Shown: positions 7,541 through 56,256, numbered from the stretch's first letter. The stretch is DNA of 64,000 nt from an uncultured Hyphomicrobium sp. (GCA_964386545.1 CAYLSI010000014.1:8298-72297), one strand, 5' to 3'. The notes: generated by a model not told the origin, from the sequence alone. Translations and numbers: made by a program.

Positions 7541-7599
7541 TTGGTTGGTCGCATTTTGTCGCGACGAACCGGCCTCCACGTCGTCGGAAAATTCTCTAG
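7541..7599. repeat. dispersed intergenic repeat, copy A (conserved nested hairpin GCATTTTg-tCGCGACGAAccggcctccacGTCGTCG-GAAAATtC)
   Basis: About 85% identical to the elements at 16659-16721, 44950-45050 and 56165-56256. Its terminal CTCTAG supplies the TAG stop of the minus-strand PBP gene. Confidence 0.8.
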
Positions 7600-10082
7600 C
7601 GGAGCTGCTGCAGGTTGAGCGCGCGGGTCAGCGCATCCGAGGCCGTGTCGCGCGTGTTGCTGGCGACGGGCTTCGGCGGGGCGGCTTTCGGCGGCAACAG
7701 GCCCGGCTTCGGGTTCTCGCGCGCGTGTCCGGCGAGATCCTCCAGCAGAACCTCCAGGAGAGGGGCTGCGACATCGGCTGCATGGATCTTGCGCGCCCAC
7801 GGCTGCTGCCCGGAGCCCGTTCCGACAAGCACGACATACGAGTAGGCCGCGCCGTTGGCGAACTGCAGGCCGCCCGTGGTCCATACGTCCACCGTGGCAT
7901 CCGGATCGGCCGTGACCTGCGTGCCCGTCTTGGCGAAATGTAGGCGCAGGCCGCCGCGGCGTGCCGGGCACCACTGGGCGAGCGACTTCAGCGTGCCCGT
8001 GGGCTTGCCGCCGGCGGTGTAGCAGAGCGGGGCCGAGAGCAGCGCGCGCAGGAGCGGGGCGGCGCGGCGTTTGATCAGCCGGTTCGGAATGATGGGATCG
8101 CGCACGTCGAAGCTGCCGTCGCGTTTTTCGTTCACGTCCGTGAAGTCGTAGCGCCGGATCAGCGTCGGCTCGCGCACCGGCGTCGCGCCGCGCCCGATCA
8201 GTGCGGCGAGGATCACGGCCGACATATGATGGACCTTGCGCGGCGAGCCCGAGATCTGCCCCAGCACGGCCGCCGTCGAGGGCGGCGTATCGCTCCCGGC
8301 GGCGTCGCGCGGCGGCATCGTGAACCCGAAGCCGTCGATCAGGCCCCGCATGCGCGCCTGCCCGGCGAGCGCCGTGCGGTTCAAGAGCGGCGCATTGAGC
8401 GAGCAGGCGAACGCCACGATGGCGCGGCGGCCATAGCGACCGTTGCCCTTGGCGCATGTTTCGAGCCCACGATCCGGGGCCGCCGTGTCGACGTAGAGGG
8501 ACGCCGCGCTGTCGCGGCCGCTGTTGGCGATGGCGATGGCCGCGAGCATCTTGCCGGTCGACGCGATCATGCGCGGATCGCGGGCGGGATCGTAAAGGCC
8601 GGTTTCGCCGCTGCGGGCGACGGTCGCGCCGAAGTAGGGGGCCGTCTCGCCGCTCTCGTAGTAGCGCACGATCTCACCCTTTTCGTTCGCTGCGACGACC
8701 GTCACGGTGGGCATGATGCGGCCATCGCCCGTGCGGGCGGGGTCGAGGGTGTAGCGGCTGTCGACCTTCGCACGCACCGCCGCGTCGATCTTCGCGAGTG
8801 CCACGTCGATCTTATTGTGGAAGGCGAGATTGGAGGCGGCTTCGAACGTGGTCGTCACGCCGCGCACGTGATCGCGCCAGGCGAAGCCGTACGCCTCCTT
8901 CATCTCCTCGCGCAGGCCGAAGCGGGCCGACGGCATCAACGCGTTGGCGCGCACGACCGGGTTGGCCACGGCGCGCCTGGCGACCTGCGGCGCGTGCCGG
9001 TCGAGCGCGTCCTGCAGGCGCGGCTTGACCTTGGGATCGGGCGGACCGCCGGCCATGGCGATCAGCTCGAACAGCACGTCCTTCTTCTGTCCCTCATCCG
9101 AGATCAGCGCCTCCGCGCAGACGCGGGCGCGCACCTCGACGATGAAGCGCCAGCGGTCGAGGCGGACCTCGTTCAGGCGCGCGTCGCCCTTGAGCAGGAT
9201 GATCGGCTTGTTGACGGCGGAGGCGAGCACGAACTGCTCGGCCATGGTCAGCTCGCTCGAGTCCTTGCCGAACACGACGCGGCTCGTGAGCTCGACGCCA
9301 TGCAACGGCGCGCCGCCCGTGCGCTGCGCGAGCCAGATGTGGTTCGCGGCCCACTGCTTCAGCATCGTGTCCGAGCCGTCACGCGTGAGCTCATGATAGA
9401 CGACCGGCGCCAGCCACCATTCCGACAGCTTGCGCGAGAGCTTCGTCATCGCGCCTTCGCCGGCGTGCGGGGGCGTATTGTAGATCACGCGCACGAGCTG
9501 CATCGGCAGTGTCGAACCGCCGACGCCGAGGCTCGGGCGCTTCAAGGCGACGGAGCGGGCGAGCGACGAATAGGGGATCTTGAGGACGCCCGGCAGGTCG
9601 ATGCCGAACGGATTGCGCCAGGTGCCGATATAACGGTCCTCGTGGTGCACGAGGCATTGCCAGTAGTAGGGCGGCACCTCGCGCACGGGGATCGACTTGT
9701 GGTCAGGGTTGGCCGTGTAGTCGCCGACGTCGATGGCGGCGTCCGTGTAGTTGACGTCACGCTGGCTGTCGAGGCGGGCATCGAACGTGCCGACGAAGCT
9801 GCCGGGCGCATCGTAGATCGCGGTCGCGAGCCAGCGCTCGGCGTCGTAGCGCAGCTTCTCGCCGAGCAGGTAATGGCCGGCATAGCCCCGCAAGGGCGCG
9901 ACGACATAGACGAGGAGGACGGCGAAGACGACATAGGCGACGGCCGCCACGGCCACATGGCGCAGCGGGCCCAGACGGGGATTGAACGCCACGCCTTCGC
10001 AAAACAGGCTCACGATCCGCATCGGGATGCCGATCGCAAGCTCGCGCAAACGGGCTAAGAGGCGAAAGAGGAACAGCATCAC
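7596..10082 (-). CDS. bifunctional class A penicillin-binding protein (GT51 transglycosylase + transpeptidase; PBP1C-like)
   Basis: 828 aa. GT51 motif GGSTLPMQLVRV, transpeptidase SxxK (ASTGK), N-terminal TM anchor. Confidence 0.8.
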   Translation of the reverse strand: MMLFLFRLLARLRELAIGIPMRIVSLFCEGVAFNPRLGPLRHVAVAAVAYVVFAVLLVYVVAPLRGYAGHYLLGEKLRYDAERWLATAIYDAPGSFVGTFDARLDSQRDVNYTDAAIDVGDYTANPDHKSIPVREVPPYYWQCLVHHEDRYIGTWRNPFGIDLPGVLKIPYSSLARSVALKRPSLGVGGSTLPMQLVRVIYNTPPHAGEGAMTKLSRKLSEWWLAPVVYHELTRDGSDTMLKQWAANHIWLAQRTGGAPLHGVELTSRVVFGKDSSELTMAEQFVLASAVNKPIILLKGDARLNEVRLDRWRFIVEVRARVCAEALISDEGQKKDVLFELIAMAGGPPDPKVKPRLQDALDRHAPQVARRAVANPVVRANALMPSARFGLREEMKEAYGFAWRDHVRGVTTTFEAASNLAFHNKIDVALAKIDAAVRAKVDSRYTLDPARTGDGRIMPTVTVVAANEKGEIVRYYESGETAPYFGATVARSGETGLYDPARDPRMIASTGKMLAAIAIANSGRDSAASLYVDTAAPDRGLETCAKGNGRYGRRAIVAFACSLNAPLLNRTALAGQARMRGLIDGFGFTMPPRDAAGSDTPPSTAAVLGQISGSPRKVHHMSAVILAALIGRGATPVREPTLIRRYDFTDVNEKRDGSFDVRDPIIPNRLIKRRAAPLLRALLSAPLCYTAGGKPTGTLKSLAQWCPARRGGLRLHFAKTGTQVTADPDATVDVWTTGGLQFANGAAYSYVVLVGTGSGQQPWARKIHAADVAAPLLEVLLEDLAGHARENPKPGLLPPKAAPPKPVASNTRDTASDALTRALNLQQLR

Positions 10083-10720
10083 GCGACGAACAATCGAGAT
10101 TCCAGCGGTCGACCCCGGCGCTGGTCCTCCCCGGTCGTTAGCGGATGTTTGTGGCGGAAGGTCGGAGAAAGCGGGGCGCGGCCGGCCCGGCCGGCCGGTC
10201 GCGAGCCCGTTGCCGGATCACAGGAATTGGCATCACCGACGTCGGATCTGGGGCGTCGGAGCCTGGGATGCAGATCACGGGGGAGCTCGATCGCGGGAGA
10301 TCGGATCACGGGACGATCAGATGGCCCAATTGGCAGATCGCAGAGCCGGGGGCATCAGAGCCGGGCATGGGAAATGATTGCGGAAATGACTGCGCCTCTT
10401 TCGTCCGGGTCGCACGAGAGCCCGGCGCGAAATGCAAACGCGTTTGGCCGTTCCGGCCGCTCGTCACATCGTGTTGAGCAGAACGAAAAGTCCTACCCCA
10501 ACCGCAGGCCCCAAAAGCGTGGCCACAACGAGCATCAAAAAGGATCTACCAAGCATAACACGACATACCCCGCACAAACGCGCCCACTGGCTTTGCCGCC
10601 CACGCAACGCCGGTGTCTTCCACCTGTTCCACGGAGACCCCTCACCCGCGAAACATGAGGATTATACAACGGGGAAAAAATTCCCTCATCCGATTTTCTA
10701 ATTTCGGCCACAATGTTGGT

Positions 10721-10754
10721 TTGCAGCGCAGAGCATCCTTTTGCTGCGTTGCAA
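10721..10754. promoter_or_regulatory. 34-bp palindrome TTGCAGCGCAG-N12-CTGCGTTGCAA in the long AT-rich intergenic region. A further TTGCAGCGCA half-site lies about 100 bp away, and TATAAT boxes on the minus strand lie at 10820-10825 and 10661-10666.
   Basis: Inverted repeat read directly (11-bp arms, 1 mismatch). Located between the 3' end of the dual-ATPase operon and the PBP gene start. Confidence 0.3.
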
Positions 10755-14325: not shown

Positions 14326-14359
14326 GCGTCAACGGTCTCCAACGCAATCGTTACGGGCG

Positions 14360-15971: not shown

Positions 15972-16658
15972 GGAATGTATCGCGTCGCCCTTAGTTTTCT
16001 TGCCGCCGTCCTCACTCTGGGATTGGGGGCTTGCAGCCTCAACACGAGCAGCGTCTCGTCCGGGTTCAACGACCTCGGCACGACCGCCTCGATCGATCCG
16101 CTCAGCGGATCGCGCCAATCCACCACCACCGGCTCCATCGACCGCCGGCAGCGCTCGGGTCTGACCGGCGCGCAGGTCGCCGCCTATTCGCCCGACAAGG
16201 CCCCTTCAGGGTCCTATGAGAAAGCGCCGGCCGGCTCGCTCGCCGACCGCGATTACTCGTCGACCAACCTCGACCCCGACATGGCGCGGGACCTGATCAA
16301 CCAGTACCGCCAGGAAAACGGCCTCAAGCCGCTCAAGCTCAACGCCTCGCTCACCGAGGCCGCGAAGGGCCACAGCCGCGACCTCGCCAAGTGGGACCGC
16401 ATCTCGCACTACGGCAGCGACGGCTCGAACCCGTGGGACCGCGTGAAGCGCACGGGCTACAAGCCGCGCCTCGCCGCCGAGAACGTCGGCACGGGCCAGG
16501 TTTCGTTCAAGGAAGTGCTGCGGGGATGGAAGGACAGCCCCGGTCACAACAAGAACCTGCTGCTGGCGGACGCCCGCGAGATGGGCCTCGCCCTGGTGCA
16601 GGACCCCAAGACCGAGTTCAAATCGTTCTGGACGCTGGTGATCGGCGCACCGATGTAG
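15972..16658 (+). CDS. CAP/SCP/PR-1 domain lipoprotein (YkwD-like)
   Basis: Lipobox LTLGLGAC. C-terminal CAP motifs HSRDLAKWDRISHYG...GHNKNLL. Confidence 0.7.
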   Translation, partial: GMYRVALSFLAAVLTLGLGACSLNTSSVSSGFNDLGTTASIDPLSGSRQSTTTGSIDRRQRSGLTGAQVAAYSPDKAPSGSYEKAPAGSLADRDYSSTNLDPDMARDLINQYRQENGLKPLKLNASLTEAAKGHSRDLAKWDRISHYGSDGSNPWDRVKRTGYKPRLAAENVGTGQVSFKEVLRGWKDSPGHNKNLLLADAREMGLALVQDPKTEFKSFWTLVIGAPM

Positions 16659-16721
16659 GTTTTTTGATTGGTCGCATTTTCTTACGACGAACCGGCCTCC
16701 ACTTCGTCGGACAATGCTCCG
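16659..16721. repeat. dispersed intergenic repeat, copy B (exactly fills the gap between convergent stop codons)
   Basis: TTGATTGGTCGCATTTTCTTACGACGAACCGGCCTCCACTTCGTCGGACAATGCTCC. Same hairpin core as copies A, C and D. Confidence 0.8.
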
Positions 16722-17828
16722 TCACTTCTTCTTCTGGATCTCTTCCTGCGGCGCGGCGCCTTCTGTGGCCCGCGCCGTTTGCGTTTCCTTGAGCGTGAAC
16801 TGCACCAGCAGCGTGCGCTGGAGGAAGCGGTTGAAGTTGTCGTCCGACATCATCGTGACGACGGTCTCGCCGTCGCGGCCCCGGCTCACGGCGAGGGCTT
16901 CGAGATTGTCGATCTCTTGGGCCGTGTCGGCTTCGAGCAGGACCTCGCCCGTCACATCCGCGCCGGGCTTCACGTCGGCCGCCGCGATGTGGCGCAGGCG
17001 AATGCGCAGCCCCTCGAGCCAGCGGAAGCGCCGCTCCAGCACGAGCAGGCCGCCGTCCGGCAGGCTCGCGGCGTCCGTCACGCCGAAGCCGCTCGCCCCG
17101 CTCAGCGTGACGCCGCGCGGCGTGCCGCCGATCCAGATCCATCCGCGATGGCGCTTCTCGCCGCGCAGCGGATGCTCGGCGAAGGCCACGAGCGCGCCCT
17201 TGTTCGGCCCGCCGGCGAGCACCGTCAGCCCCTCGATGCCGTCCATGCGCATGCGGGCGGCTTCCTTCGGCATCGTCAAGTAGGACGAGGGCTTGCCCAG
17301 CACGCCCTTCGCGATCGGAAAGACGCCGATGCGGTCGTGCTGCTCGAAGGCGACGTAGGCCGTGCCCTTCTCCGGCGTGCCGGCCGCGAGCGCCACCGCC
17401 TCGGCGTCGCGGTCGCGCGCGCGATCGAGCGGCTTGCCCTTCAAGGTCTGGAACGCGCCGATGCGCGCGCCGCGGATGGACTGCGGCCGGTCCTGATCGT
17501 CATAGGCCAGCTCGCCCGTCATCCAGACGCCGGAATCCGAGACGCTGACGAAGCGGCGGCCGTCCCCATCGAAGGCGAGACCCGACCATCCGCCGAAGTA
17601 TTTCGACGGCGACGTCAGGACCAGGCCGCCACGCCAGGCGAGACGGCTGTTGGCGAAGGGCGTGCCGGCTTTCGAAAAGCTCCTGATCGGCTTTGCCTGG
17701 ATCTCGATGGCATGCGGGGCGAAGCCGGCCGCATCCGGCTTCCATTGCGCCACGGCTTCTTGCGGGGATGCGAGCGCGAGCGTGATCCCGATCGCGACGG
17801 CCAGACCGCACATCCCCAACCGCTTCAT
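16722..17828 (-). CDS. esterase-like activity of phytase family protein (secreted)
   Basis: Signal peptide MKRLGMCGLAVAIGITLALA. Conserved phytase-like esterase architecture of about 370 aa. Start taken at MKRLGM (17828) rather than the ORF-track start. Confidence 0.65.
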   Translation of the reverse strand: MKRLGMCGLAVAIGITLALASPQEAVAQWKPDAAGFAPHAIEIQAKPIRSFSKAGTPFANSRLAWRGGLVLTSPSKYFGGWSGLAFDGDGRRFVSVSDSGVWMTGELAYDDQDRPQSIRGARIGAFQTLKGKPLDRARDRDAEAVALAAGTPEKGTAYVAFEQHDRIGVFPIAKGVLGKPSSYLTMPKEAARMRMDGIEGLTVLAGGPNKGALVAFAEHPLRGEKRHRGWIWIGGTPRGVTLSGASGFGVTDAASLPDGGLLVLERRFRWLEGLRIRLRHIAAADVKPGADVTGEVLLEADTAQEIDNLEALAVSRGRDGETVVTMMSDDNFNRFLQRTLLVQFTLKETQTARATEGAAPQEEIQKKK

Positions 17829-32462: not shown

Positions 32463-32466
32463 ACCT

Positions 32467-33366: not shown

Positions 33367-33514
33367 GGCGCGGGCAAGTTATCCACACGGAGCGAAACCG
33401 CGCACGCGCCCTCGACCGCAACGGCGAATTATCGCTAAGATAACGCTACCATTTTCGGATTCGCGCTCGCATGCTCTGCATCGTCTGCGTGGTCTTCCGA
33501 CAAGGCGGTGCAGG

Positions 33515-41171: not shown

Positions 41172-41243
41172 GATTGGCATGGGAGTCGAACCCACGACAG
41201 CGAGAGTAACAGTCTCGTGCTCTACCCACTGAGCTAGCCACTG
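41172..41243 (-). tRNA. tRNA-like sequence with anticodon GTT (Asn), apparently degenerate
   Basis: Canonical D-arm (GCTCAGTGGGTAGAGC), anticodon arm CGAGA-CTGTTAC-TCTCG and T-arm (GTGGG-TTCGACT-CCCAT). The 8-9 linker is missing relative to the tRNA-His-like 5' GTGGCTA, and acceptor 1:72 and 3:70 are mismatched. Could still be annotated as tRNA-Asn by covariance tools. Confidence 0.4.
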
Positions 41244-41315
41244 GAGAAGCCAAAGGGACTCGAACCCCCGACCGCCCGGAGATGTCCGGGTGCTCTGCCG
41301 CTGAGCTATGGCCTC
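41242..41315 (-). tRNA. tRNA-like sequence with CAT in a non-canonical 6-nt anticodon loop (Met/Ile2-like), with 3' CCA that abuts or overlaps the 5' end of the neighbouring tRNA-like sequence
   Basis: Good acceptor stem (GAGGCCA/TGGCTTC), D-arm, T-arm (GGGGG-TTCGAGT-CCCTT) and encoded CCA. The anticodon arm is CCCGG-ACATCT-CCGGG, a 6-nt loop. Confidence 0.4.
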
Positions 41316-44321: not shown

Positions 44322-44369
44322 AGCGCGTTCACTTTCATCAGACTCGGATTTCGCGCATGAACGCGCTCT
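44320..44369 (+). terminator. 12-bp perfect-stem hairpin (AGAGCGCGTTCA...TGAACGCGCTCT) starting in the PRMT-like stop codon; followed by a T-containing tract
   Basis: Read directly. Confidence 0.45.
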
Positions 44370-44417
44370 AAAGTCTTTGTTCGAGAGCCTGCGTCACGCC
44401 CTCGCTGCACGCTCTCT

Positions 44418-44489
44418 CCTCTTGCCCGCCTTCGGCAGGATACTCTTGCCTGCCTTCGGCCCTCTATCTTTGCCTGCCTTCGGCAGGAC
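44418..44489. repeat. three imperfect tandem copies of a ~24-bp unit (CTCTTGCC[C/T]GCCTTCGGCAGGA); copy 3 forms a perfect CCUGCC-UUCG-GGCAGG tetraloop hairpin
   Basis: Read directly. Confidence 0.6.
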
Positions 44490-44661
44490 GCCGCCCGCAT
44501 CTCGGACGATCAGGCTCTCATCGCGCGCGCAATTTTGCGTACGTATACCGGCCGGAACAGCACGATCATTCGCGCGCGGCCATGATGCGTTTCAACGGCG
44601 ACGATCAACGACCAAGATCGCCGTGATCCTGTGCAACCGTCCGCATCATGGAGATCCCGAT

Positions 44662-44943
44662 ATGCGCACACTGCTCGCCCTCACGCTCATCGCGACCTCG
44701 TCCGCTCTCATCTCGGCTGCGCCCGCCATGGCCGAGAAGATGGGCTCGACGACGCACGTCTACAAAGACGGCCGCCCGAAGATCAAGCATCTCCCGCTGC
44801 CCAACGACGATGCCTTCAAGGGCTGGAACGCCAAGTCCGTCGCGAAGCTGAAGCTCTGCTATAAGGGCGGCGGCATGTTCAAGTCCGGCGGCAAGTGGGT
44901 CAATGGCCGTTGCCGCTATCCGGACGGCACGTCCTGGAACTAG
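44662..44943 (+). CDS. small secreted protein (93 aa, signal peptide MRTLLALTLIATSSALISAAPAMA, 2 Cys)
   Basis: ATG at 44662. Cleavable signal peptide. Followed by a 10-bp-stem hairpin (CCGATCCGAT-aga-ATCGGATCGG) at 44951-44973. Confidence 0.5.
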   Translation: MRTLLALTLIATSSALISAAPAMAEKMGSTTHVYKDGRPKIKHLPLPNDDAFKGWNAKSVAKLKLCYKGGGMFKSGGKWVNGRCRYPDGTSWN

Positions 44944-44949
44944 ACCGTT

Positions 44950-45050
44950 TTCCGATCCGATAGAATCGGATCGGCCCGCTCTAGATTCTTGCTTTGTCGC
45001 ATTTTCTTACGACGAACCGGCATCCACTTCGTCGGAAAATGCTCCAATGC
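44950..45050. repeat. dispersed intergenic repeat, copy C (extended form: upstream hairpin + CGCTCTAGATTCTTG + core hairpin)
   Basis: Near-identical to copy D (56165-56256) over about 90 bp. Core shared with copies A and B. Confidence 0.8.
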
Positions 45051-45135
45051 CCCGCATCGTCATCGCGCCGGAATGGACAACGGCCAGGTGGATCGCTCCG
45101 CCTGGCCGCTTTGCTTTCCACGAGCGACGATCGCC

Positions 45136-46548
45136 TCACACGGACGAGGCGCTGGACGGCTTCGGCGCGCGATCGTTGGCGGGCTCGAACGTGAACGCCA
45201 CCGCGGCCGGGTCGTAGCCGGACACCGACTGCGCCACGGGCTTGCGCAGCGCCGGCCCGCTCACGGGGATGAGCTCGGCGCGCGGATCGAACGTGCGCAT
45301 GAACTGCGCGATGCGCGGGGCGATCTCGGCGCGGAAGCGCGAGCCATTGAAAATGCCGTAGTGGCCGACGCCCGTGCATTCGACGTGCAGGCGCTTGTCC
45401 TCGGCGAGGCCGCTCACGAGATCATGCGCGGCGCGGCACTGGCCGACGCCCGTGATGTCGTCCCGCTCGCCCTCGATCGTCATCAGCGCGACGCGGCGGA
45501 TCTGGGACGGGTCGACGCGGCGTCCGCGATGCGTGAACTCGCCCCGCGGCAGCGTATGGCGCACGAAGACGCGGTCGATGGTGTCGAGGTAGAACTCGGA
45601 CGTCAGGTCCATGACGGCCAGGTACTCGTCGTAGAACTCGCGATGCTTCTCGGCCGAGTCGCCGTCGCCCTCGACGAGGTCGCGGAACAACTGCTTGTGG
45701 GCGTTGGCGTGACGCTCGAGGTTCATGGCCATGAAGCCCGAAAGCTGCATGAAGCCCGGATAGACGTTGCGGCCGGCGCCGGCGTGCGACCAGGGCACCG
45801 ACGTGATGACATGGCGCGCGAACCACGCGGTGCCGCGGTCGACGGCGACGCGATTGACCGCGGTCGGGCTCACGCGCGTGTCGATGGGGCCGCCGGCCAG
45901 AACCATGCTGAGCGGCACGTTCGGATCGTGATCCTGCTCCATCAGCGAGACGGCGGCCATCACCGGCACGGCCGGCTGGCATACGGCATAGACGTGCACG
46001 TCGCCTTTGAAGAGCGTGATCATCTCGCGGATGTAGTCGACGTAGTCGTCGAGACCGAACTCGCCAGCCGACAGCGGCACGCCGGCCGCGTCCTGCCAGT
46101 CGGTAATGTAGACCTCGTGATCGGGCAGCAGCGCCTCAACGGTGCCGCGCAGCAGCGTCGCGTAGTGGCCGGACATCGGCGCGACGAGCAGGACGCGCGG
46201 ATGGGCGGCGCGCTCGGCCGGCGTCATGTTGCGATGGAAGTGCACGAGGCGGCAAAAAGGGCGGTCCCAAACGACCTCCTCTCCGACGTCGACCACGCGG
46301 TTGGCGATGCGCGTCGTCTTCAGTCCGAATGCGGGCTTCTCGTAGCGGCGCGTCGTGCGCTCGAAGACCTCACAGGCGGCGGCGGCGTGACGGCCGGCCA
46401 GCGTGAGCGACATGGGATTGAAGGGGCTTTCCACCAGAAAGCGAACTGATTCGGCTACTGCACGTGCTGGCTTCAATGCCGCATGGCTCATCTCGTACCA
46501 GTGATAGAGCAATCTTGAAGCTCCCGCGAATTGGAGCGGAGCCCGCAC
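45136..46548 (-). CDS. phaZ: intracellular polyhydroxyalkanoate (PHB) depolymerase PhaZ
   Basis: 470 aa. Family-typical N-terminus LLYHWYEMSHAAL and conserved core. Start ambiguous. Confidence 0.75.
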   Translation of the reverse strand: MRAPLQFAGASRLLYHWYEMSHAALKPARAVAESVRFLVESPFNPMSLTLAGRHAAAACEVFERTTRRYEKPAFGLKTTRIANRVVDVGEEVVWDRPFCRLVHFHRNMTPAERAAHPRVLLVAPMSGHYATLLRGTVEALLPDHEVYITDWQDAAGVPLSAGEFGLDDYVDYIREMITLFKGDVHVYAVCQPAVPVMAAVSLMEQDHDPNVPLSMVLAGGPIDTRVSPTAVNRVAVDRGTAWFARHVITSVPWSHAGAGRNVYPGFMQLSGFMAMNLERHANAHKQLFRDLVEGDGDSAEKHREFYDEYLAVMDLTSEFYLDTIDRVFVRHTLPRGEFTHRGRRVDPSQIRRVALMTIEGERDDITGVGQCRAAHDLVSGLAEDKRLHVECTGVGHYGIFNGSRFRAEIAPRIAQFMRTFDPRAELIPVSGPALRKPVAQSVSGYDPAAVAFTFEPANDRAPKPSSASSV

Positions 46549-46698
46549 TTTGCGGACCGCGCGTTATCTGCTGTTCCGTGATAACGCACGAGACAGCGGA
46601 ATCGTCACGCTGGGAGCGCGGCTAAAGGCCGCCGAAACCAAATTTTTATCGCTTTTTGATCATCCCCCGGCGGGAGGATGCACTGATTCGAGCGTTCC

Positions 46699-47388
46699 CT
46701 AAAGCGATGCCGCGGTCTGTCCCGCATCGATCACGCGGGCGATTTCCGCTGCGATCACCTTGGCGTCGGCGCCATGCGAGAAGTGCCTCACGAACTCGCC
46801 GCGGGCATCCATCAGATAAATAAAGGGACTGTGGTCGACGCTGTATTCGCCGGGATTGGCTTCATCCGGCACCTTTTTGGCGTAGACGCGGTAGGCCTTG
46901 ATCGCGGCGGCGACCTCCTCCGGCGTGCCGGAGAGCCCCACGATCGTCTTGTGGAAGCTCTTCGCGTACTTGTCGACGACCTCGGGCGTGTCGCGCTCGG
47001 GGTCGACGGTGATGAACAGCGGCGTCATGCGGCTCGCCTTGTCGCCCAGTTCGTCGAGCGCGGCCGCGATCACCTGCAGCCCCGCCGGGCAGACGTCCGG
47101 ACAGTGGGTGAAGCCGAAGAACACCAGCATCGGCTTGCCGGCGAAGTCCTTCTCCGTGACCGCCTTGCCGGCGCCGTCCTTCAGGGCAAAGGGCCCGCCG
47201 ATGGCCGCCTTGCCGATCGTCTGCTGTTGCGGCGCAGACTGAGGAATAATGGCCAGGAGCGCCGCCGTCATGACGCCCGCGGCCAAGCCCACCAACAGCG
47301 CGAGCAGCACGAGCTTCCGGGACGAGGCCGCGGTCTCCGGATTCTTCTTGCCTGCTTTCGCCGCCATCGCCGATCCGTTCTTTCGCAA
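46699..47388 (-). CDS. senC: SCO1/SenC family copper chaperone (thioredoxin fold, CxxxC)
   Basis: MLVFFGFTHCPDVCP motif. N-terminal TM anchor. Confidence 0.85.
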   Translation of the reverse strand: MRKNGSAMAAKAGKKNPETAASSRKLVLLALLVGLAAGVMTAALLAIIPQSAPQQQTIGKAAIGGPFALKDGAGKAVTEKDFAGKPMLVFFGFTHCPDVCPAGLQVIAAALDELGDKASRMTPLFITVDPERDTPEVVDKYAKSFHKTIVGLSGTPEEVAAAIKAYRVYAKKVPDEANPGEYSVDHSPFIYLMDARGEFVRHFSHGADAKVIAAEIARVIDAGQTAASL

Positions 47389-47542
47389 TTCGCGCCCGGG
47401 GCCACGCCCGGCCGATCCGAAAATTATGCTGCTTCCGACCTTCGTCGGCCTCTATTTGGATCACGCCTTGCCAGCTTGCAAGCTATGCTAGTATTTCCCG
47501 TCTCCAGAGCCCCTACGGCCCTCGTCAAAGAAGTAGTTTCCG

Positions 47543-48967
47543 GTGCAAGAAAGACTGACCAAGCGCTTTTCTTCCAACTTCGCCCTCGATGGCGACAGCC
47601 AGCTCCGCCTTTCGACCATTGTCCGCCTCCGCTGGGTCGGCGTCATCGGCCAGATCGTGGCGCTCAGCATCGTCTACTACTGGTTCGGGTTCGATCTGCC
47701 GGCCGGCCCCTGCCTCATCATCATCGCGGTGTCGGCCTGGGTGAACGTGTTCCTGGCGATCCGCTATCCGGCGCGCCATCGCCTGACGGTGAACTTCGCG
47801 ACCGCGCTGCTCGCCTACGACATCCTGCAGCTCGCCTCGCTCCTTTATCTCACCGGCGGCATCGACAATCCCTTCACGATGCTGCTGATGGCGCCCGTCA
47901 CGGTCTCGGCGGCGACGCTGCCGCTGACGCGGACGATCGGGCTCGGCATCCTCGCGCTCGGCTGCACGCTGCTGCTCGTCTTCCACGCCATGCCGCTGCC
48001 CTGGTATGTGGATCCGGCGCTGACGCTCCCGGTGCTCTACAAGCTCGGCATTTTCGCCGCCGTTGGCGCCTCGATGCCGTTCCTCGCGCTCTACGTCTGG
48101 CGCTTGACGAACGAAGGCAAGCAGATGTCGGCCGCACTGGCCGCGACCGAGCTCGTGCTCGCACGCGAGCAGAAGCTGCACGCGCTCGACGGTCTGGCGG
48201 CAGCGGCCGCGCACGAGCTCGGCACGCCGCTCTCCACGATCACGCTGGTCACCAACGAGCTGGACCGCCAGTTCGACAAGAACAGCCCGTTCCGCGAGGA
48301 TATTCTGCTCTTGCGCAGCCAGGCGCAGCGGTGCCGCGAGATCCTGCAGAAGCTCACGCGCCAGCCGCCGGACGAGGATCCGCTGCACGCGAGCCTCACC
48401 ATCAAGGAGATGCTGCACGAGGCCGCCCAGCCCTATTTCGGCGGGCGGGCCATGGTCCATATCACGACGGCGCCGTCGTCGGGCGTCGCGGGCGCGGATG
48501 CACGCGTGCCGGTCGCGATGCGCCGGCCCGGCGTCATCTACGGCCTCGAAAACATCATCGAGAATGCCGCCGACTTCTGCTCCAGCCGCGTCGACGTGAA
48601 AGGCGAATGGGATTCCCAAACCGTCTCGGTCACGATCCTGGACGACGGCCCCGGCTTCAAGCCGGAGGTCATCGACAATCTGGGCGAGCCTTACGTCACC
48701 ACGCGCGGGAGTGGACGAAAGGACAAGAGAGGGCACAAGGTCTCCGGCATGGGCCTCGGCTTCTTCATCGCCAAGACGCTGCTCGAACGGTCGGGAGCGC
48801 GCCTGCAGCTCGAAAACAGGCTCGAGCCGGAGCGGGGCGCGGTCGTACGCGTCACCTGGCCGAGAGCCGCATTCGAAGCCGCCGTCGAGCGCGAGACCAC
48901 CGTTCCGCCGCCGGCCCGCCGCCGCGAGCCGCCGGGCCCCGGCGACCCGATCACGGATGCGATCTAG
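47543..48967 (+). CDS. regB: redox-responsive sensor histidine kinase RegB/PrrB/ActS
   Basis: Six-TM N-terminus, H-box AAAAHELGTPLSTI, HATPase_c (GMGLGFFIAKTLL). Classic senC/regB/regA neighbourhood. Confidence 0.85.
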   Translation: MQERLTKRFSSNFALDGDSQLRLSTIVRLRWVGVIGQIVALSIVYYWFGFDLPAGPCLIIIAVSAWVNVFLAIRYPARHRLTVNFATALLAYDILQLASLLYLTGGIDNPFTMLLMAPVTVSAATLPLTRTIGLGILALGCTLLLVFHAMPLPWYVDPALTLPVLYKLGIFAAVGASMPFLALYVWRLTNEGKQMSAALAATELVLAREQKLHALDGLAAAAAHELGTPLSTITLVTNELDRQFDKNSPFREDILLLRSQAQRCREILQKLTRQPPDEDPLHASLTIKEMLHEAAQPYFGGRAMVHITTAPSSGVAGADARVPVAMRRPGVIYGLENIIENAADFCSSRVDVKGEWDSQTVSVTILDDGPGFKPEVIDNLGEPYVTTRGSGRKDKRGHKVSGMGLGFFIAKTLLERSGARLQLENRLEPERGAVVRVTWPRAAFEAAVERETTVPPPARRREPPGPGDPITDAI

Positions 48968-49124
48968 TTCGACGCCGCACCGGAACAGGAGTGAAATTTA
49001 TTAACGGCGAAACCCTGCCGTACACCAAGATTCCGCTTTCAGAGAGTACGGTTATGCTAAACGATGTTCTAGTATTGGAGTCGGATCCAAGGCTAATATA
49101 AGTCCCAAAAAGTGGGAGGACGCG

Positions 49125-49691
49125 GTGGAAACAGAAGACCTATCATTTCGGCAAGACGAGCTGCCCGAGGACCGCTCTCTCATCATCGTCGATGACGATC
49201 GTCCTTTCCTGCAGCGTCTCGCCCGCGCCATGGAGCTGCGTGGCTTCGAAGTGCGCAGCGCCCATTCCATCGCGGAAGGCATCGAGCTCATTCGTGCGCA
49301 GGCCCCGGCCTTCGCCGTCGTCGACATGCGGCTGGAGGACGGCAACGGCCTCGACGTGATCGCGGAGCTGACCAAGGTTCGTCCCGATACGCGCATCATC
49401 GTGCTGACCGGCTACGGCAACATCGCCACCGCCGTCTCCGCCGTGAAGCTCGGCGCGGTGGACTATCTGGCCAAGCCCGCCGATGCCGACGACGTGACGG
49501 ACGCTCTGCTCGCGCCTCACAACGCGAAGGCCGCGCCTCCGGAAAACCCCATGTCGGCCGACCGCGTCCGCTGGGAGCACATCCAGCGCGTCTACGAGCT
49601 CTGCAACCGCAACGTCTCCGAGACAGCCCGCCGCCTCAACATGCACCGCCGCACGCTGCAACGCATTCTCGCCAAGCGCGCCCCGAAGTAA
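49125..49691 (+). CDS. regA: response regulator RegA/PrrA/ActR
   Basis: Receiver domain (IIVDDD...D), C-terminal Fis-type HTH (ETARRLNMHRRTLQRIL). GTG start with GGGAGGA RBS. Confidence 0.9.
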   Translation: METEDLSFRQDELPEDRSLIIVDDDRPFLQRLARAMELRGFEVRSAHSIAEGIELIRAQAPAFAVVDMRLEDGNGLDVIAELTKVRPDTRIIVLTGYGNIATAVSAVKLGAVDYLAKPADADDVTDALLAPHNAKAAPPENPMSADRVRWEHIQRVYELCNRNVSETARRLNMHRRTLQRILAKRAPK

Positions 49692-49694
49692 GGC

Positions 49695-50225
49695 TCACAC
49701 GTCCCCCACACCGAGGCCGATCGCCGCCTGAAGCGTAGGGTCGAGCGTCAGGCACAGCCGCGACGCGGCCGCACGCGCGATCTTCAACGTCATCGTCTTG
49801 CGGACATGGGCCGGCAAGCGCGCAAGCGGTGCCGGCCTTAGAATTTCTCCGGCATACCGATCCGCCGCAATCAGCCCCGTTTCGTCCGGCAGGATCTCGA
49901 ACGGGAAATCGGGACGCACGGCGAAAAACAGCCGGTCGCAATAGTCGCGATACTCCGGCCACTTCAGATCGCATCTGAAATCCTCGATCGAAGACTTGAT
50001 CTCCACGATCCAAATCGCCCCGTCCGGACCGATGCCGACGACATCCGCGCGCCGGCCGTTCGGCAGCGGAAGCTCCGAGATCGCGGCCATGCCGTGCGCG
50101 GCGAGCAGCCGCACGACGCCGCGGCAGATCTCGCGCGCCGTCTCCGACTGCGGGCCGCCGTAGGACGTGCGGGGAATATCCGCACCCTCTAATCCGTTTT
50201 CCACATTGTCCTCGATGCTGGTCAT
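49695..50225 (-). CDS. MmcB-like DNA repair protein family
   Basis: Conserved core WIVEIKSSIEDFRCDLKWPEYRDYCDRLFFAV, typical of the MmcB/PDDEXK-like family. Confidence 0.6.
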   Translation of the reverse strand: MTSIEDNVENGLEGADIPRTSYGGPQSETAREICRGVVRLLAAHGMAAISELPLPNGRRADVVGIGPDGAIWIVEIKSSIEDFRCDLKWPEYRDYCDRLFFAVRPDFPFEILPDETGLIAADRYAGEILRPAPLARLPAHVRKTMTLKIARAAASRLCLTLDPTLQAAIGLGVGDV

Positions 50226-50353
50226 GGATCTGCCATTTCGGGCTGTCACCAACGCCACAGCCTGATGCGTCAGGCCATCGCATTCGGATCGATAACGCGG
50301 CTCCGCATCGAACGGAGACCTCCCGATGTTGTCCTCAAGAAGGTGCGGACCTC

Positions 50354-52876
50354 ATGTTCTTCAAGCGGCTCAGCAGAGAAAAGCGGCCTCCGGCTGCGGC
50401 GCCCGAAGCGGTGTCGAAGGTCGAGAGCGCCGGCTCGTCCGGCATTATTCCCGCCCTTCTCAGCCGAACGGAAGCGCAAACGCTGTCCGCCGCCGACCTG
50501 CGCCGGACCGTGGACGCTTCTTCGCTCGGATTCAAGACCACCGACGACCTGACGCCCGCGGACGGCCTGATCGGCCAGGAGCGCGCGCTCGAGGCGATCA
50601 AATTCGGCCTCGAGATGAAAGCGGACGGCTTCAACATCTTCGTGCTCGGGCCGCAGGCCAGCGGCAAGCACACGGCCGTCCGGGCGCTCGTCTCCACCCT
50701 CGCGGCGGCGGCCGAGACGCCAGCCGATTGGGTCTACGCGCCGAACTTCGACGATCCCCTGCGCCCGCGCGCGCTGTCGCTTCCGGCGGGGCGGGGCCCG
50801 CGCTTCGCGCGCGGCGTGCGTGAGGCGTTGACCGAGCTTTCGGTCGCGCTGCCCGCGGCGTTCCGCAGCGAGGACTACCGCGCGCGCCGGCGCGTGCTCG
50901 ACGAGGAGCTGCGCGCGGCCAACGACGATGCGCTCGCCCACATCTTCGCCAAGGCCGCGCAGCAGAACATCGCGGTGCTTCGCACGCCGCTCGGCTTCGG
51001 CGTCGCCCCCATGCACGACGGCAAGGTCGTGAAGAGCGAGGTCTTCAACCAGCTTCCGGCCACCATGCGGCGCGACGTGGAAACGCGCGTCGCGGCGCTC
51101 GAAAAAGAGCTGCAGGCCGTGCTCGCCAACGCCCCCGAGGCCGAGCGCGCGCGCCGCACGCAACTGGCCGCGCTCAACGCCGATACGGCGCGGCACGCGG
51201 TGGAAGACTGCCTCGATGCGCTGTCGGCCGAATTCGCCAAGGTTCCCGAGGTGGCCGCCCATGTGGCGGACATGGAGACGGACATCATCGCCAACTGCGA
51301 GCGCTTCGCCGAGATCCCGTCGCGGGACGCTGCGCTCGACGCGTTCGAGGACGGCTTCTTCGGGCGCTATCTCGTCACCGTCATGGCGTCGTCCGCGCCC
51401 GATGCGGGGAGCCCCGTGCTGGAGCTCGCCCCGGTGTCGGCGCCGGCGCTCACGGGCTTCATCGAGGCGGCCCCTTCCGGCCGCACCGTCTCGCATCCCA
51501 CGCTGCGGCTCCGTCCCGGCGCGCTGCATCGCGCGAACGGCGGCCTGCTGCTGATCGAGGCGCGCGATCTCCTCGCATCGCCCGAGAGCTGGCAGGCGCT
51601 GAAGCGCGCGCTCAAGACGGGTGAGATCGCCGTTGCGGCGTCGCCCGAGGCGGCCGGCGCATCCGCCGCGGCGATCGTGCCTCAGCCCGTGCCGCTCGCG
51701 GTCAAGATCGTGCTGTTCGGCGATGGCGAAAGCTATCAGCAGCTCGAAGCGGCAGATGCCGAGTTCGCGCGCTATTGCAAGGTGCAGGCGGATTTCGACG
51801 ACACCATCGCGCGGTCGAGCGAGAACGAGCGCAGCCTGGCGCGCCTCATCGCCTCCATCGTGGCGCGGCACGCGCTGACGCCGGTCGACGCGGCGGGCGT
51901 CGCGCGCCTTCTCGACGAGGCGTCCCGCATCGCCGAGAACCGCGAGCGCCTGACGCTCGAGGTCGGCCGGCTGACCGACATCCTGCAGGAGGCCGACCAC
52001 TGGGCGCGGGCGGAGACGCGCAAGACGATCTCGGCGGACGACATCCGCAAGGCGATCGAGCAGCGGGCGCGGCGCACGGACCGGGCGCGCACGCAGGCGC
52101 ATGACGCGATCGAGCGCGGCGTCGTGCTCGTCGACACGTCGGGCGCCAAGGCCGGCCAGGTGAACGGCCTGTCGTTCGCGGCGAAGTCCGGACCCGGTTT
52201 CGCGCGGCCCGTCCGCATCACGGCGCGCGTGCATCTCGGCGGCGGCCGCGTCACCGACATCGAGCGCGAGGTCTCGCTCGGCGGGCCGCTGCATTCCAAG
52301 GGCGTCATGATCCTCTGGGGCTACCTCGCCGGCCGCTATGCCGACGACGTTCCGCTGGCGCTCGCCGCCTCGCTCGTGTTCGAGCAGTCGTACGAGCCGG
52401 TGGACGGCGACAGCGCGTCCGCGGCCGAGCTCTTCGCGCTGCTCTCGGCGCTGGCCGATGCGCCGCTGCGCCAGGACCTGGCCGTCACCGGATCGGTCAA
52501 TCAGTGGGGCGAGATCCAGGCCGTCGGCGGCGTCAACGAGAAGATCGAAGGCTTCTTCGACCTCTGCGCCGCGCGCGGGCTCACCGGCACGCAGGGCGTC
52601 CTGATCCCGGAAGCCAACCGCCAGCACCTCATGCTGCGCGAGGACGTCGTCGCCGCCGTCAAGGAGGGCCGCTTCAGCGTTTCGACAATCAAGACCGCCG
52701 ACGAAGGCCTCGCGCTCTTGACGGGCCTCGAAGCGGGCCAGAAGACGGCCGAGGGCTTCGGCGCGGCGACGCTCAACGGGCGCGTCGCGGCGCGGCTGCG
52801 CAGCTTCGCCGAAAAGGCGCGGCTCTACGAGGCCGACGGCAGCCGTCGCGGCGCCGCAGCCGGGAAGGCCGCATGA
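50354..52876 (+). CDS. Lon-like protease family protein (AAA-like N-domain + S16 Lon proteolytic domain; LonB/YcbZ-type)
   Basis: 840 aa. Degenerate P-loop VLGPQASGKHTAV. C-terminal Lon protease domain with Ser (DGDSASAA) and Lys (VNEKIEG) dyad context. Confidence 0.75.
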   Translation: MFFKRLSREKRPPAAAPEAVSKVESAGSSGIIPALLSRTEAQTLSAADLRRTVDASSLGFKTTDDLTPADGLIGQERALEAIKFGLEMKADGFNIFVLGPQASGKHTAVRALVSTLAAAAETPADWVYAPNFDDPLRPRALSLPAGRGPRFARGVREALTELSVALPAAFRSEDYRARRRVLDEELRAANDDALAHIFAKAAQQNIAVLRTPLGFGVAPMHDGKVVKSEVFNQLPATMRRDVETRVAALEKELQAVLANAPEAERARRTQLAALNADTARHAVEDCLDALSAEFAKVPEVAAHVADMETDIIANCERFAEIPSRDAALDAFEDGFFGRYLVTVMASSAPDAGSPVLELAPVSAPALTGFIEAAPSGRTVSHPTLRLRPGALHRANGGLLLIEARDLLASPESWQALKRALKTGEIAVAASPEAAGASAAAIVPQPVPLAVKIVLFGDGESYQQLEAADAEFARYCKVQADFDDTIARSSENERSLARLIASIVARHALTPVDAAGVARLLDEASRIAENRERLTLEVGRLTDILQEADHWARAETRKTISADDIRKAIEQRARRTDRARTQAHDAIERGVVLVDTSGAKAGQVNGLSFAAKSGPGFARPVRITARVHLGGGRVTDIEREVSLGGPLHSKGVMILWGYLAGRYADDVPLALAASLVFEQSYEPVDGDSASAAELFALLSALADAPLRQDLAVTGSVNQWGEIQAVGGVNEKIEGFFDLCAARGLTGTQGVLIPEANRQHLMLREDVVAAVKEGRFSVSTIKTADEGLALLTGLEAGQKTAEGFGAATLNGRVAARLRSFAEKARLYEADGSRRGAAAGKAA

Positions 52877-53754
52877 TCGCGCACGTCGCCGAGGCTGACG
52901 AGCAGAGGGGACGCGTCGTGCTGTGGCTCGGCGGCCCGGGCGATCCGCACGACACGGCCGTCGAGGCGGCCGTGAGGCTGGCGCAGGCGTTCCGCGCCGA
53001 GATCGACAGCCTGTTCATCGCCGACGACCAGCTCTTCGACCTCGCGGATCTGCCGTTCGCGCGCGAGGTCTCGATGTCCGGGCGGCAGATGCGCTCGTTC
53101 TCGACGGAAGCGCTCGCGCGCGAGATCCAGGCCAACGCCTCGGCGCAGCAGCGTCTCGTGCAGGCGCGCGCGGCGGCGGCGGCGATCGTCGCGCACGCCC
53201 GCCACATGCGCGCCGATCCCTTGGGCGCGCTCGCCCGGGCCTGCACGGAGAACGGCCCGTGGAATGTCGTGACGGTGGGCTCTCCGGTTCGCAGCACCGA
53301 TGGCGCGACGCTCGCGGGCGCGGGTTTTGCCGGCGTGTTCGATGCGGTCCAGGCGACGACCGGGATCGTCGTCACCGGCCCCAAGGCGACGCGGACGGGC
53401 GGACCGGTGATCGCGGTGGTGGAGGAGATCGAGCGGCTCGCGCCGATGATGCGCGCGGCCGAGCGCATCGGAAAGACCACCGGCGGCGACGCGCGGCTCT
53501 GGCTTCTCGACCACGACCAGGGGCGCCTCGAATGGATCGAGGGGCAGATCCGCCTGGCGCTCGGCGCGACGCCGGCGATCAAGCTCGAGATCGTGGACAT
53601 GAGCCGCCACACGGCCCTCGACGTAGCCGCCATGATGCGGCGCGAGCGGGCAGGCTTCGTCATCACGCGCTTCGGCGGCGTGCTGGCCCCGACCGACGAC
53701 GACGCGGCGCTGTTTGCCGAAATGCTCGAAGGCCCGCTGTTTCTCGTGCGCTAA
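52872..53754 (+). CDS. hypothetical tandem universal-stress-protein(USP)-like alpha/beta protein, translationally coupled (ATGA) to the Lon-like protease
   Basis: 293 aa. Two repeated halves each beginning V(V/I)LWLGGPGD... / PVIAVVEEIERL..., resembling Usp-fold segments. Assignment tentative. Confidence 0.5.
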
Positions 53755-53838
53755 TTCTGGTGCGCTGACCTTGCGCGCCGCGCGCGGCCGTCCTAGAGCG
53801 TTCGGCGATCCCAATCACGACAGCCAGAACGGACGCCA

Positions 53839-54726
53839 ATGCCGGAGCTTCCCGAGGTCGAGACGGTGCGCATGGGGCTCGAGCCCGTGCTCGCGGGCCG
53901 CGTGCTCAGCAAGGTGCTGCTGCGGCGCGCCGACCTGCGCTTTCCGTTCGCGCCGAAGTTTGCCGAGCGCCTCACGGGCGCGCGCATCCTCGCGCTCACG
54001 CGGCGCGCCAAGTATCTCGTCGCGGAGCTCTCGACGGGCGACACGCTCGTCATGCACCTCGGCATGACGGGACGGTTTCACGTGCAGGCGCGCGGAGAGG
54101 CGGCCGCGCACCTCATCGGCGACTACGAGTACGCGACGCCGGGCGGCGACAAGCACGCGCACGTCGTCTTCGACACGGACGACGGGACGCGCGTCATCTA
54201 CTCGGACCCGCGCCGCTTCGGCTACATGCTGCTGATCTCACCCGACGAGATCGCGATGCACCCCGCCCTGCACGGGCTCGGCGTCGAGCCGCTGTCGGAT
54301 GCGCTCGATGCGGCCTACCTCGCGCGGCGCGCGGCGGGGCGCAAGACTGACCTCAAAGCGTTCCTGATGGACCAGCGTACCATCGCCGGGCTCGGCAACA
54401 TCTACGTGCTCGAAGCCCTGCATGCGGCCGGGGTCAAGCCGTCGCGGGGCGCCTCCACGCTCGCGACGCGATCGGGCAAGCCGACGCCCGCGGCCGAGCG
54501 GCTCGTCGCGGCGATCAAGGACGTTCTCAAGGCAGCCGTGCTGGCGGGCGGGTCCACGCTGCGGGACTACCGGCAGGCGGACGGCAGCACGGGGTCGTTC
54601 CAGAACACGTTTCGCGTCTACGGGCGCGCGGGCGAGCCTTGCCTCACGCCCGGTTGCCGGGGCATCGTGCGTCGCAGCGTCCAAGGCGGGCGGTCGAGCT
54701 TCTTCTGTCCCGTCTGCCAGCACTGA
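53839..54726 (+). CDS. mutM: formamidopyrimidine-DNA glycosylase
   Basis: N-terminal MPELPEVE catalytic Pro. C-terminal zinc finger CxxC...CxxC. Confidence 0.9.
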
Positions 54727-54739
54727 AAGGCGGCCCCCG

Positions 54740-55513
54740 ATGGCTTTCGAGACGATCCTGACTGAAACGCGCGGCCGGGTGGGGCTGATTACGCTCAACC
54801 GGCCGCAGGCTCTGAACGCACTCAACGACCAGTTGATCGGCGAATTGAACGCAGCGCTCGACGCCTTCGAGGCGGACGAGGGCGTCGGCGCGATCGTGGT
54901 GACGGGCTCCGAGAAAGCCTTCGCGGCCGGGGCCGACATCAAGGAGATGCAGGCCAAGACCTACATGGAGGCGTTCAAGGGCGACTTCATCGCGAGCTGG
55001 GAGCGGATTGCCCGCTGCCGCAAGCCGGTGATCGCGGCGGTGGCCGGGTTCGCGCTCGGCGGGGGCTGCGAGCTGGCGATGAGCTGCGACCTCATCCTCG
55101 CGGCCGACACGGCGAAATTCGGCCAGCCGGAGATCAAGCTCGGCATCATGCCGGGGGCCGGCGGTACCCAGCGCCTCGTGCGCGCCATCGGCAAATCGAA
55201 AGCGATGGAGCTATGCCTCACGGGGCGCATGATGGATGCGGAGGAAGCGGAGCGGTCCGGGCTCGTCGCGCGCGTCGTCCCGGCGGCGGCTCTGCTGGAG
55301 GATGCGATCAAGACGGCGGAGACCATCGCGGCACAGTCGATGACGGCGTCGATGATGACGAAGGACTGCGTCAACCGCGCGTTCGAGACGACGCTGGCGG
55401 AAGGCATCCGCTACGAGCGGCGCACGTTCCACGCGATGTTCGCCACGCACGACCAGAAGGAAGGCATGGCCGCCTTTACGGAGAAGCGCCGCCCGCAGTT
55501 CCGGAACGAATGA
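54740..55513 (+). CDS. enoyl-CoA hydratase (crotonase family)
   Basis: 257 aa. Oxyanion-hole motifs [19 protein letters not shown]. Confidence 0.9.
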
Positions 55514-56138
55514 TGCGCGTCTGCGTGACGGCCGACATCATGCAGAGCGCGAAGATCGCGATGCCGCCCCACAGGAACACCTCGTTGGCGGCCCAGTCGC
55601 CCTTGAGCGTCGCGAGCTTGCCGGTTCCCACCATGTAGACGAGGCCCGCCGCCACGGCGAAGCCGTGCAGGTACGTCAGATAGATCGGCGGGACGGGAAG
55701 GCTGCGGATGCGGCCGAGCCGCATGCCGTAGAGCGCGAGGCAGGCGGCGAAGACCGCCGCGCCGGTGCCGTACTGGAACGCGTGGCGCCAGGTGAGGTCC
55801 GACAGCGAATAGACCGCATAGAGCGCGGACGCGCCCCACGCATAGACGAGCGCGGCGAGCCAGATGTTGCAGCGGACGGCCTCGCGCACCGCCTCCAGCC
55901 CCGCATAGCGCGACGAGAACGTGCCGTTGCGCGCCCACACTGGCGCGTTGATGCCGAGGCCCGTGCCGACGACGAGCGCGACCAGGAGCCCGGCCGCGAT
56001 GGCGGGCAGAAAGCGGTCGCCGCGTCCCGCGCCCAGCACCATCATCGTGATGCTCAAGGCAGCGGCCAGCAGCAGCCATGGAAGCAGCGGCCGAAGCGAG
56101 ATCCCCGGCGTGTAGGAACTTTGCGAATGTGTGCTCAT
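55476..56138 (-). CDS. integral membrane protein, paralog 1 of a tandem pair (unknown function)
   Basis: About 6 TM helices. C-terminal [19 protein letters not shown] matches the paralog's DVDWAGNGIFLFGALALAIV. 38-nt convergent overlap with the enoyl-CoA hydratase 3' end. Confidence 0.55.
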
Positions 56139-56164
56139 ACGAGCTTTTGACTGGAGCGTTTTGC

Positions 56165-56256
56165 GATCCGACAGAACCGGATCGCGCGCTCTAGATTCTT
56201 GATTGGTCGCATTTTCTTACGCCGAACTGGCCTCCACTTCGTCGGAAAATGCTCTA
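56165..56256. repeat. dispersed intergenic repeat, copy D (extended form); its terminal CTCTAG supplies the stop codon of the membrane paralog 2 gene
   Basis: GCGATCCG-acagaac-CGGATCGC hairpin + CGCTCTAGATTCTTGATTGGTCGCATTTTCTTACGCCGAACTGGCCTCCACTTCGTCGGAAAATGCTCTAG. Confidence 0.8.

Follow-up and report, generated by a model that had tools for sequence, protein, structure and literature searches.

We analysed a 64,000-nucleotide stretch of DNA from an uncultured Hyphomicrobium sp. (GCA_964386545.1 CAYLSI010000014.1:8298-72297; hereafter the window), which carries four copies, named A to D, of a small dispersed repeat that lies between genes and folds into hairpins. The repeat was first described in an initial annotation made from the sequence, and it is real: the degenerate core GCATTTTnnnnCGnCGAACnGGCnTCCACnTCGTCGGAnAATnCTC matched the window at exactly four places, all on the + strand (7551-7596, 16674-16719, 44999-45044 and 56209-56254), and 100 shuffles of the window gave 0 matches, so that none is expected by chance. 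A profile built from 77 relatives and run on the window recovered the same four copies and no others. The annotation's suggestion of a mobile element of the MITE type (miniature inverted-repeat transposable element) is borne out by empty sites in relatives for all four copies, two duplications of a TA target, a dispersed family and covarying hairpins.

Genes flanking the copies were called from codon-position G+C and named by Pfam (Table 1). As had been proposed, the terminal CTAG of copy A provides a stop codon, with CTA at 7596-7598 forming the TAG of the minus-strand penicillin-binding protein (PBP) gene at 7596-10082, and the terminal CTAG of copy D does the same for the minus-strand gene at 56254-56847. 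Copy B sits, also as described, in a 63-nt gap between two convergent stops (16656-16658 and 16722-16724). A further case had been missed, since the left CTAG of copy C is also the TAG stop of the small + strand gene at 44662-44943. The open reading frames (ORFs) that run through the repeat were correctly dismissed as artefacts: LIGRIFLRRTGLHFVGKCS and LVAFSY...STSSENA both begin in the repeat and are antisense to real genes. The proteins encoded beside the copies had their best named matches in Hyphomicrobium, at ~70-76% identity, and a look-up of protein records returned no match for the 184-aa protein adjoining copy A.

Table 1. Positions of the repeat copies and their parts in the window, with the genes on either side
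Feature	Position	Strand	Description	Gene context
Copy A	7533-7597	+	solo module 2; 65-nt lineage-specific segment comprising linker ACAGATTATTGGTTGGTC and hairpin 7551-7596	between PEMT-like gene (+) and PBP gene (-)
Copy B	16660-16718	+	solo module 2, 59 nt	between CAP-domain gene (+) and phytase-like gene (-)
Copy C	44943-45044	+	full element, 102 nt	between small gene (+, 44662-44943) and polyhydroxybutyrate (PHB) depolymerase gene (-)
Copy C, left flank	44941-44942		TA
Copy C, module 1 hairpin	44943-44981	+	GAATC at 44963-44967, beside the loop
Copy C, internal TA	44982-44983	+
Copy C, linker GATTC	44984-44988	+
Copy C, module 2 hairpin	44999-45042	+
Copy C, right flank	45045-45046		CA, a mutated TA
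Copy D	56154-56254	+	full element, 101 nt	between two small minus-strand genes
Copy D, left flank	56152-56153		TG, a mutated TA
Copy D, module 1 hairpin	56154-56191	+	GANTC site decayed to GAACC
Copy D, internal TA	56192-56193	+
Copy D, linker GATTC	56194-56198	+
Copy D, module 2 hairpin	56209-56252	+
Copy D, right flank	56255-56256		TA

A canonical unit was derived from 145 aligned copies and reads C-TA-GAGC[variable stem, loop, stem]GCTC-TA-G-nTTCTTTGTTTTGnC-GCATTTTC-nnn-CGnCGAA-CCGGnnTCCAC-TTCGnCG-GAAAATGCTC-TA-G. The full element is ~102 nt long and joins a hairpin that varies (module 1), through a T-rich linker, to one that is conserved (module 2); it begins with GAGC, ends with GCTC, is flanked by TA on both sides, and shares ~11-13 nt between its ends (GAGCATTTTCSG). 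TA follows GCTC in 96 of the 145 copies. Copies C and D are full units, and copies A and B consist of module 2 only. The additional upstream hairpin followed by GCTCTAGATTCTTG that the annotation had noticed in C and D is present in both, but the extents originally given for these two copies fell short, as their true starts lie ~10 nt further left (44943 and 56154). The proposed fold, with nested stems GCATTTTC/GAAAATGC and CGACGAA/TTCGTCG around an 11-nt loop, is predicted for B, C and D; copy A has a different predicted fold, with substitutions that weaken the nested stems.

A fifth, related sequence in the window is a 54-nt solo palindrome at 44318-44371 (+), C-TA-GAGCGCGTTCA...TGAACGCGCTC-TA-A, with termini and flanks as in the repeat, GACTC inside and the linker-like AGTCTTTG directly after it. 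The palindrome is kept at orthologous loci in relatives (L199-L203, where L-numbers denote fetched genome stretches), including a 93%-identical relative, and had no further copies among the fetched loci. It is probably a module-1-type relative or remnant of the repeat.

Outside the window, a 22-base degenerate core pattern was found in at least 118 genome stretches and 5 viral contigs. Among the matches listed, the carriers were Hyphomicrobiales, Caulobacterales and a few other alphaproteobacterial metagenome-assembled genomes (MAGs), and they included four Caulobacter loci (L010, L022, L049 and L084). Plasmid-borne relatives of the repeat were seen in Methylobacterium, Bradyrhizobium, Sinorhizobium, Microvirga and Chelatococcus. 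Some genomes hold tandem arrays of full units or of module-2 units, in which neighbours share a single CTAG/TA. In a Hyphomicrobiaceae MAG (L045 4954-5171; L025 1361-1672 and 6478-6570), such arrays comprise four module-2 units with a 62-nt period and full elements placed back to back. In near-identical strains, short-read contigs (L194-L196) break off within the repeat. One apparent extra copy, in L204, was rejected because this metagenome contig is chimeric and repeats site C; the chimera joins two regions at a short common sequence beside copy C (~2390-2522).

Orthologous loci in relatives were reached through the proteins adjoining each copy. Sites A to C are empty in relatives that are 93-98% identical, and site D is empty in more distant ones. 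At site D, the empty locus in L197/L198 (neighbour protein 87% identical) reads ...CCTCC-TA-GTCAAA, and the filled locus, on the minus strand of the window, reads ...CCTCC-TA-[ GAGCATTTTC...AACGCTC ]-CA-GTCAAA, where the brackets enclose a full GAGC...GCTC element. The gene gap at this site is at most 12 nt in the more distant L212-L216, which leaves no room for an element. At site C, the empty locus in L199 reads ...GAT-TA-GTTCC (GGAAC-TA-ATCTCCC on the window strand), and the filled locus in the window reads ...CAT-TG-[GAGC...GGTC]-TA-GTTCC. Copies C and D are therefore clean insertions that duplicated the TA of a YTAR site, and both targets lay within a stop codon. At site C, the element entered the TAA stop codon belonging to the small + strand gene, which now ends in a TAG composed of TA and the G of the element. 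Site D is also filled in the 93%-identical relative (L199/L202), with CTAG intact at both ends, and since this is the only copy which that relative has in common with the window, three of the four copies are younger than the split between them.

The two solo copies gave a different picture. At site B, the empty locus in L206/L207 reads ...TGACGG|CCTACAT..., where the bar marks the point at which the window carries an extra stretch of exactly 59 nt; the site is filled in L209 (99% aa). Copy A is absent from L157, whose PBP is 98% identical in amino acids, and from L206/L207. We set L157 aside as the empty-site reference for copy A because it has an 11-nt deletion of its own, and L206 serves better, although the event remains replacement-like. 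In L211 (neighbour protein 82% identical), a 45-nt decayed look-alike of the inner module-2 hairpin lies exactly at site B (~1483-1527). Its presence there, while the closer L206 is precisely empty, reflects either repeated insertion at one spot or precise loss.

The bases next to the element define its target. In an unbiased count, the base before the left TA was C in 60 copies, T in 8, G in 2 and A in 2, and the base after the right TA was G in 77, A in 19, C in 1 and T in 1. These two flanking bases vary independently of each other while GAGC and GCTC stay constant, a pattern that fits a 2-bp TA duplication at YTAR and does not fit a duplication of 3 or 4 bp. Targets of this kind are rare in the window, which has 645 TA dinucleotides versus 1651 expected and only 64 YTAR sites. 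About one in six (~16%) of the non-coding, harmless YTAR sites in the window lie in stop codons. Among the 145 copies, ~43 element ends also serve as stop codons, and special targeting of stop codons is not needed to account for them, as this share of harmless sites explains the number. Because the element begins with G, its insertion into TAA or TAG always restores TAG, and the genes on both sides stay intact. Scarcity of TA and the rebuilding of TAG thus explain both the apparent donation of stop codons and the build-up of copies between convergent genes. The gene contexts across the 145 copies (52 convergent, 52 tandem and 7 divergent) show the excess of convergent over divergent pairs that is expected of surviving insertions.

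Folds of module 1 in 77 full copies contained a median of 17 bp, and their z values versus shuffles had a median of -6.1; the stem sequences fell into 18 clusters. These values come from per-sequence folds, as RNAalifold on a MAFFT alignment missed module 1 because its stem geometry differs among subfamilies. Among the aligned stems, 89.9% of cells pair, versus ~40% with slid partners, and double changes are numerous (column pair 17/50: GC 30, AU 26, CG 5, UA 4; column pair 88/108: GC 46, AU 22, CG 2), and the covariation score of the alignment was reached by 0 of 500 shuffles. The conservation of module 2 is partly fixed by the search pattern. The profile found 32 additional copies outside that pattern, which form sister subfamilies that keep the GAGC/GCTC ends and swap both module-2 stems (GCATGATC/GATCATGC, GCATCGGA/TCCGATGC, GCATGTTC/GAACATGC and GCAGATTT/AAATCTGC), and the loop AACCGGnnnCCACTT persists in them despite the swapped stems. 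The module-2 loop AACCGGnnTCCACTT is likewise conserved across Hyphomicrobiales and Caulobacterales. Selection acts on the hairpins. They also differ between strands, as module 1 hairpins are stabler and richer in G-T wobbles on the strand that reads CTAGAGCATTTTCCG... (49 vs 18 copies, 14 vs 3 clusters); within the window, the two strands are evenly matched in hairpin quality.

On balance, and with confidence a little above even, we favour the explanation that A to D are copies of a non-autonomous, MITE-like element belonging to an alphaproteobacterial class of two-hairpin intergenic repeats and mobilised in trans by a TA-duplicating transposase. The full unit, GAGC...GCTC (~102 nt), would most likely be moved by an enzyme that targets the TA within YTAR sites, preferably CTAG, and duplicates it. 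In this genome of 68% G+C, where TA is scarce, TAA and TAG stops preceded by a pyrimidine make up a large share of the harmless targets, and TA together with the first G of the element rebuilds TAG and spares the genes on either side. The solo module-2 copies A and B may be derivatives that arose or inserted by a variant route. Insertion polymorphism, TA duplication at C and D, YTAR flanks, rebuilt stop codons and covarying hairpins are observed, and the kind of enzyme, its action in trans and the way in which the solo copies arose are inferred. Known enzymes with suitable habits include those of IS630-family elements, which duplicate TA and of which IS630 itself prefers CTAG (PMC2170065), and that of IS711 (IS5 family), an element that makes TA duplications at YTAR sites and occurs in association with Bru-RS repeats (PMC2266754, PMC3163539).

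Several observations weigh against a transposase of this kind. The TA duplication is seen in two clean insertion events only, and both of these targets also fit insertion 3' of YTAG. Copy B, inserted cleanly between ...ATGTAGG and CCGTCA..., has neither a TA target nor a duplication, and copy A replaces 4-13 nt of ancestral spacer, again without TA duplication. The terminal inverted repeat is short (~11-13 nt) and belongs to the hairpins themselves. A plain double-strand cut-and-paste substrate is not expected to have a conserved hairpin loop or to differ in hairpin quality between strands. In ~1.3 Mb of fetched flanks, no autonomous element or insertion sequence with these ends was found. The spans between inverted copies in L045, L102 and L107 were considered as homes for a partner transposase, and the ORFs there proved to be ordinary genes.

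Much of this contrary evidence bears on a different kind of mobility, in which the repeat would be a single-stranded DNA element resembling repetitive extragenic palindromic (REP) sequences and bacterial interspersed mosaic elements (BIME), moved by a tyrosine HUH enzyme such as a REP-associated tyrosine transposase (RAYT) or an IS200/IS605-type transposase. The two differing subterminal hairpins would then be the structures by which the left and right ends are recognised on one strand, and insertion 3' of a short target, preferably YTAG, would make no duplication, with the terminal CTAG of the element mimicking a TA duplication. Such an enzyme would suit the clean entry of copy B, and the inserted DNA of B, C and D begins at the same element position (AGCATT..., window minus strand), on the very strand where module 1 hairpins are better and richer in wobbles. 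A conserved AACCGGnnTCCACTT loop and covariation in all stems are what hairpin recognition would lead one to expect, and the mosaic of modules and the arrays with a common CTAG are BIME-like. The repeat further resembles REP/BIME and RAYT systems in having a conserved tetranucleotide head and in lying between convergent genes. However, its head is CTAG and the GTAG typical of REP is absent, its units are longer (40-60 nt), and its symmetric YTAR flanks at both ends, with apparent TA duplication, are not predicted by a one-sided target. A replication-strand bias was rejected, since the orientation of the element is not linked to local GC skew (70 vs 58), which is only a noisy indicator of the direction of replication. 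Neither a RAYT nor an IS200-type gene was seen, without a systematic search for one having been made. We regard this alternative as unlikely.

Also rather unlikely, in our estimate, is the view that the repeat, spread as it is across Alphaproteobacteria, is no classical double-strand MITE but a strand-specific element recognised through its hairpins and moved or processed either by a HUH/RAYT-like enzyme or by a host factor that reads the loop. If true, a hairpin-recognising enzyme would explain why copy B inserted without duplication, why wobbles are biased to one strand and why the loop is kept across orders.

The same hairpins could instead act in transcripts. Copies might be kept mainly as RNA, as a 3'-untranslated region stabiliser, a terminator or a small RNA (sRNA) module transcribed together with the upstream gene, mobility being secondary. 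The positions of copies directly after stop codons agree with such a role, as do the maintenance of hairpins by covariation and the wobble-pair strand bias, which points to a single-stranded form. When Rfam was searched in E-value mode, copy C also aligned, weakly but over its full length and on the minus strand, with the Brucella sRNA family RF02600 (BASRCI27; 20.3 bits, E 0.014), which shares its two-hairpin layout; the score is far under the gathering threshold of 59.8. No Rfam family reached the gathering threshold in the window or in 18 loci, however, and a Sinorhizobium copy had no Rfam match in E-value mode. The terminator reading put forward in the initial annotation was not borne out, as a scan of 44000-57000 for hairpins followed by T-runs called neither C nor D. 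Orientation relative to the upstream gene is unbiased (31 vs 21, not significant), so a transcription-orientation bias was rejected, and relatives that are 93-98% identical do without three of the four copies and have no replacement. Taken together, a primary role as RNA seems improbable.

The terminator scan flagged a separate hairpin beside copy C, at 45081-45108 (CGGCCAGGTGGATCGCTCCGCCTGGCCG, then CTTTGCTTTC), between the copy and the stop codon of the PHB depolymerase gene. This terminator-like hairpin has a counterpart at the same place in L199 and L205 and probably serves the convergent gene pair.

The Caulobacter CcrM-associated intergenic repeats (CIR) were reportedly described by Chen and Shapiro in 2003. 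CIR are ~110 bp long, consist of two inverted-repeat arms with a linker between them, carry GANTC in a terminal loop, have TA termini and are strictly intergenic in Caulobacter and other Alphaproteobacteria; reviews give their target duplication and means of mobility as unknown (PMC2229807, PMC10969869). Compared by description only, our repeat agrees with CIR in size (102/101 nt plus flanking TA), in its two hairpins and linker, in its TA ends, in its intergenic location and in its presence in Caulobacter. It differs in that GANTC occurs in about half of the copies (40 of 77 in module 1) and in that two TA duplications were seen.

Given the link to CcrM proposed in the CIR literature, the copies could also serve as DNA targets of a host protein or of epigenetic control, offering either an exposed CcrM GANTC or a binding site in the loop, that spread and were then co-opted. 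The frequency of GANTC in module 1 is ~8x background (1.67 per kb), the motif often occurs in the linker too, and both full copies in the window have it (GAATC and GATTC in C, GATTC in D). Conservation of the loop motif across orders would fit a binding site. Yet about half of the full copies lack a module-1 GANTC, copy D included, module 1 is missing altogether from A and B, and whole subfamilies (those with Methylobacterium and Chelatococcus stems) are without GANTC. Near-identical strains differ in whether they have the copies, which speaks against an essential role. We consider it improbable that the copies are kept as sites of this kind.

Other described families share features with the repeat. 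Bru-RS1/2 of Brucella and RIME1/2 of Rhizobium are, like it, palindromic or mosaic intergenic repeats of Hyphomicrobiales, 103-109 bp in length, with the palindromic Bru-RS repeats measuring 103-106 bp. Bru-RS elements are hot spots for the YTAR-targeting IS711, and the repeat described here contains YTAR at both ends as well as at the internal junction. Judged by their descriptions, RIME and Bru-RS appear to be of the same kind as this repeat. The TA-duplicating MITEs (Correia/NEMIS, ERIC and RUP; relatives of IS630/Tc1-mariner or IS711) are also small, non-coding and multi-copy, with TA ends, insertion polymorphism, strongly folded transcripts and locations at gene ends. Unlike those MITEs, the repeat has two separate hairpins with a conserved loop in place of one long end-to-end hairpin, its terminal inverted repeats span ~11-13 nt only, and its solo copies insert without duplication.

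A literature search for the repeat's own sequence returned nothing relevant. We take the repeat to be a new subfamily within a class of small mobile repeats that has been described before. The initial annotation had allowed for an already catalogued family with a known role; this is partly so, in that the repeat fits a described class (CIR, possibly RIME and Bru-RS), but this class is without an established role.

Two other features of the window were recorded. Two abutting tRNA-like genes lie at 41169-41315 (-), one of which is tRNA-Asn (GTT); the second scored 49 bits as a tRNA in Rfam and has a shortened anticodon loop, and ARAGORN left its anticodon undetermined. The largest direct-repeat families in the window stem from three paralogues arranged in tandem at 31347-34504, which have L,D-transpeptidase (YkuD) domains and a spacing of 1105 and 1024 nt.

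What is new here is the insertion rule, the explanation of stop-codon donation and the evidence of recent activity. The paired empty and filled sites are direct evidence that an old, poorly understood class of repeats is still mobile. For annotation, copies of the repeat create false ORFs, break short-read assemblies and alter stop codons without altering proteins. The copy B exception, the conserved loop and the strand bias offer handles for finding the enzyme that moves these elements.

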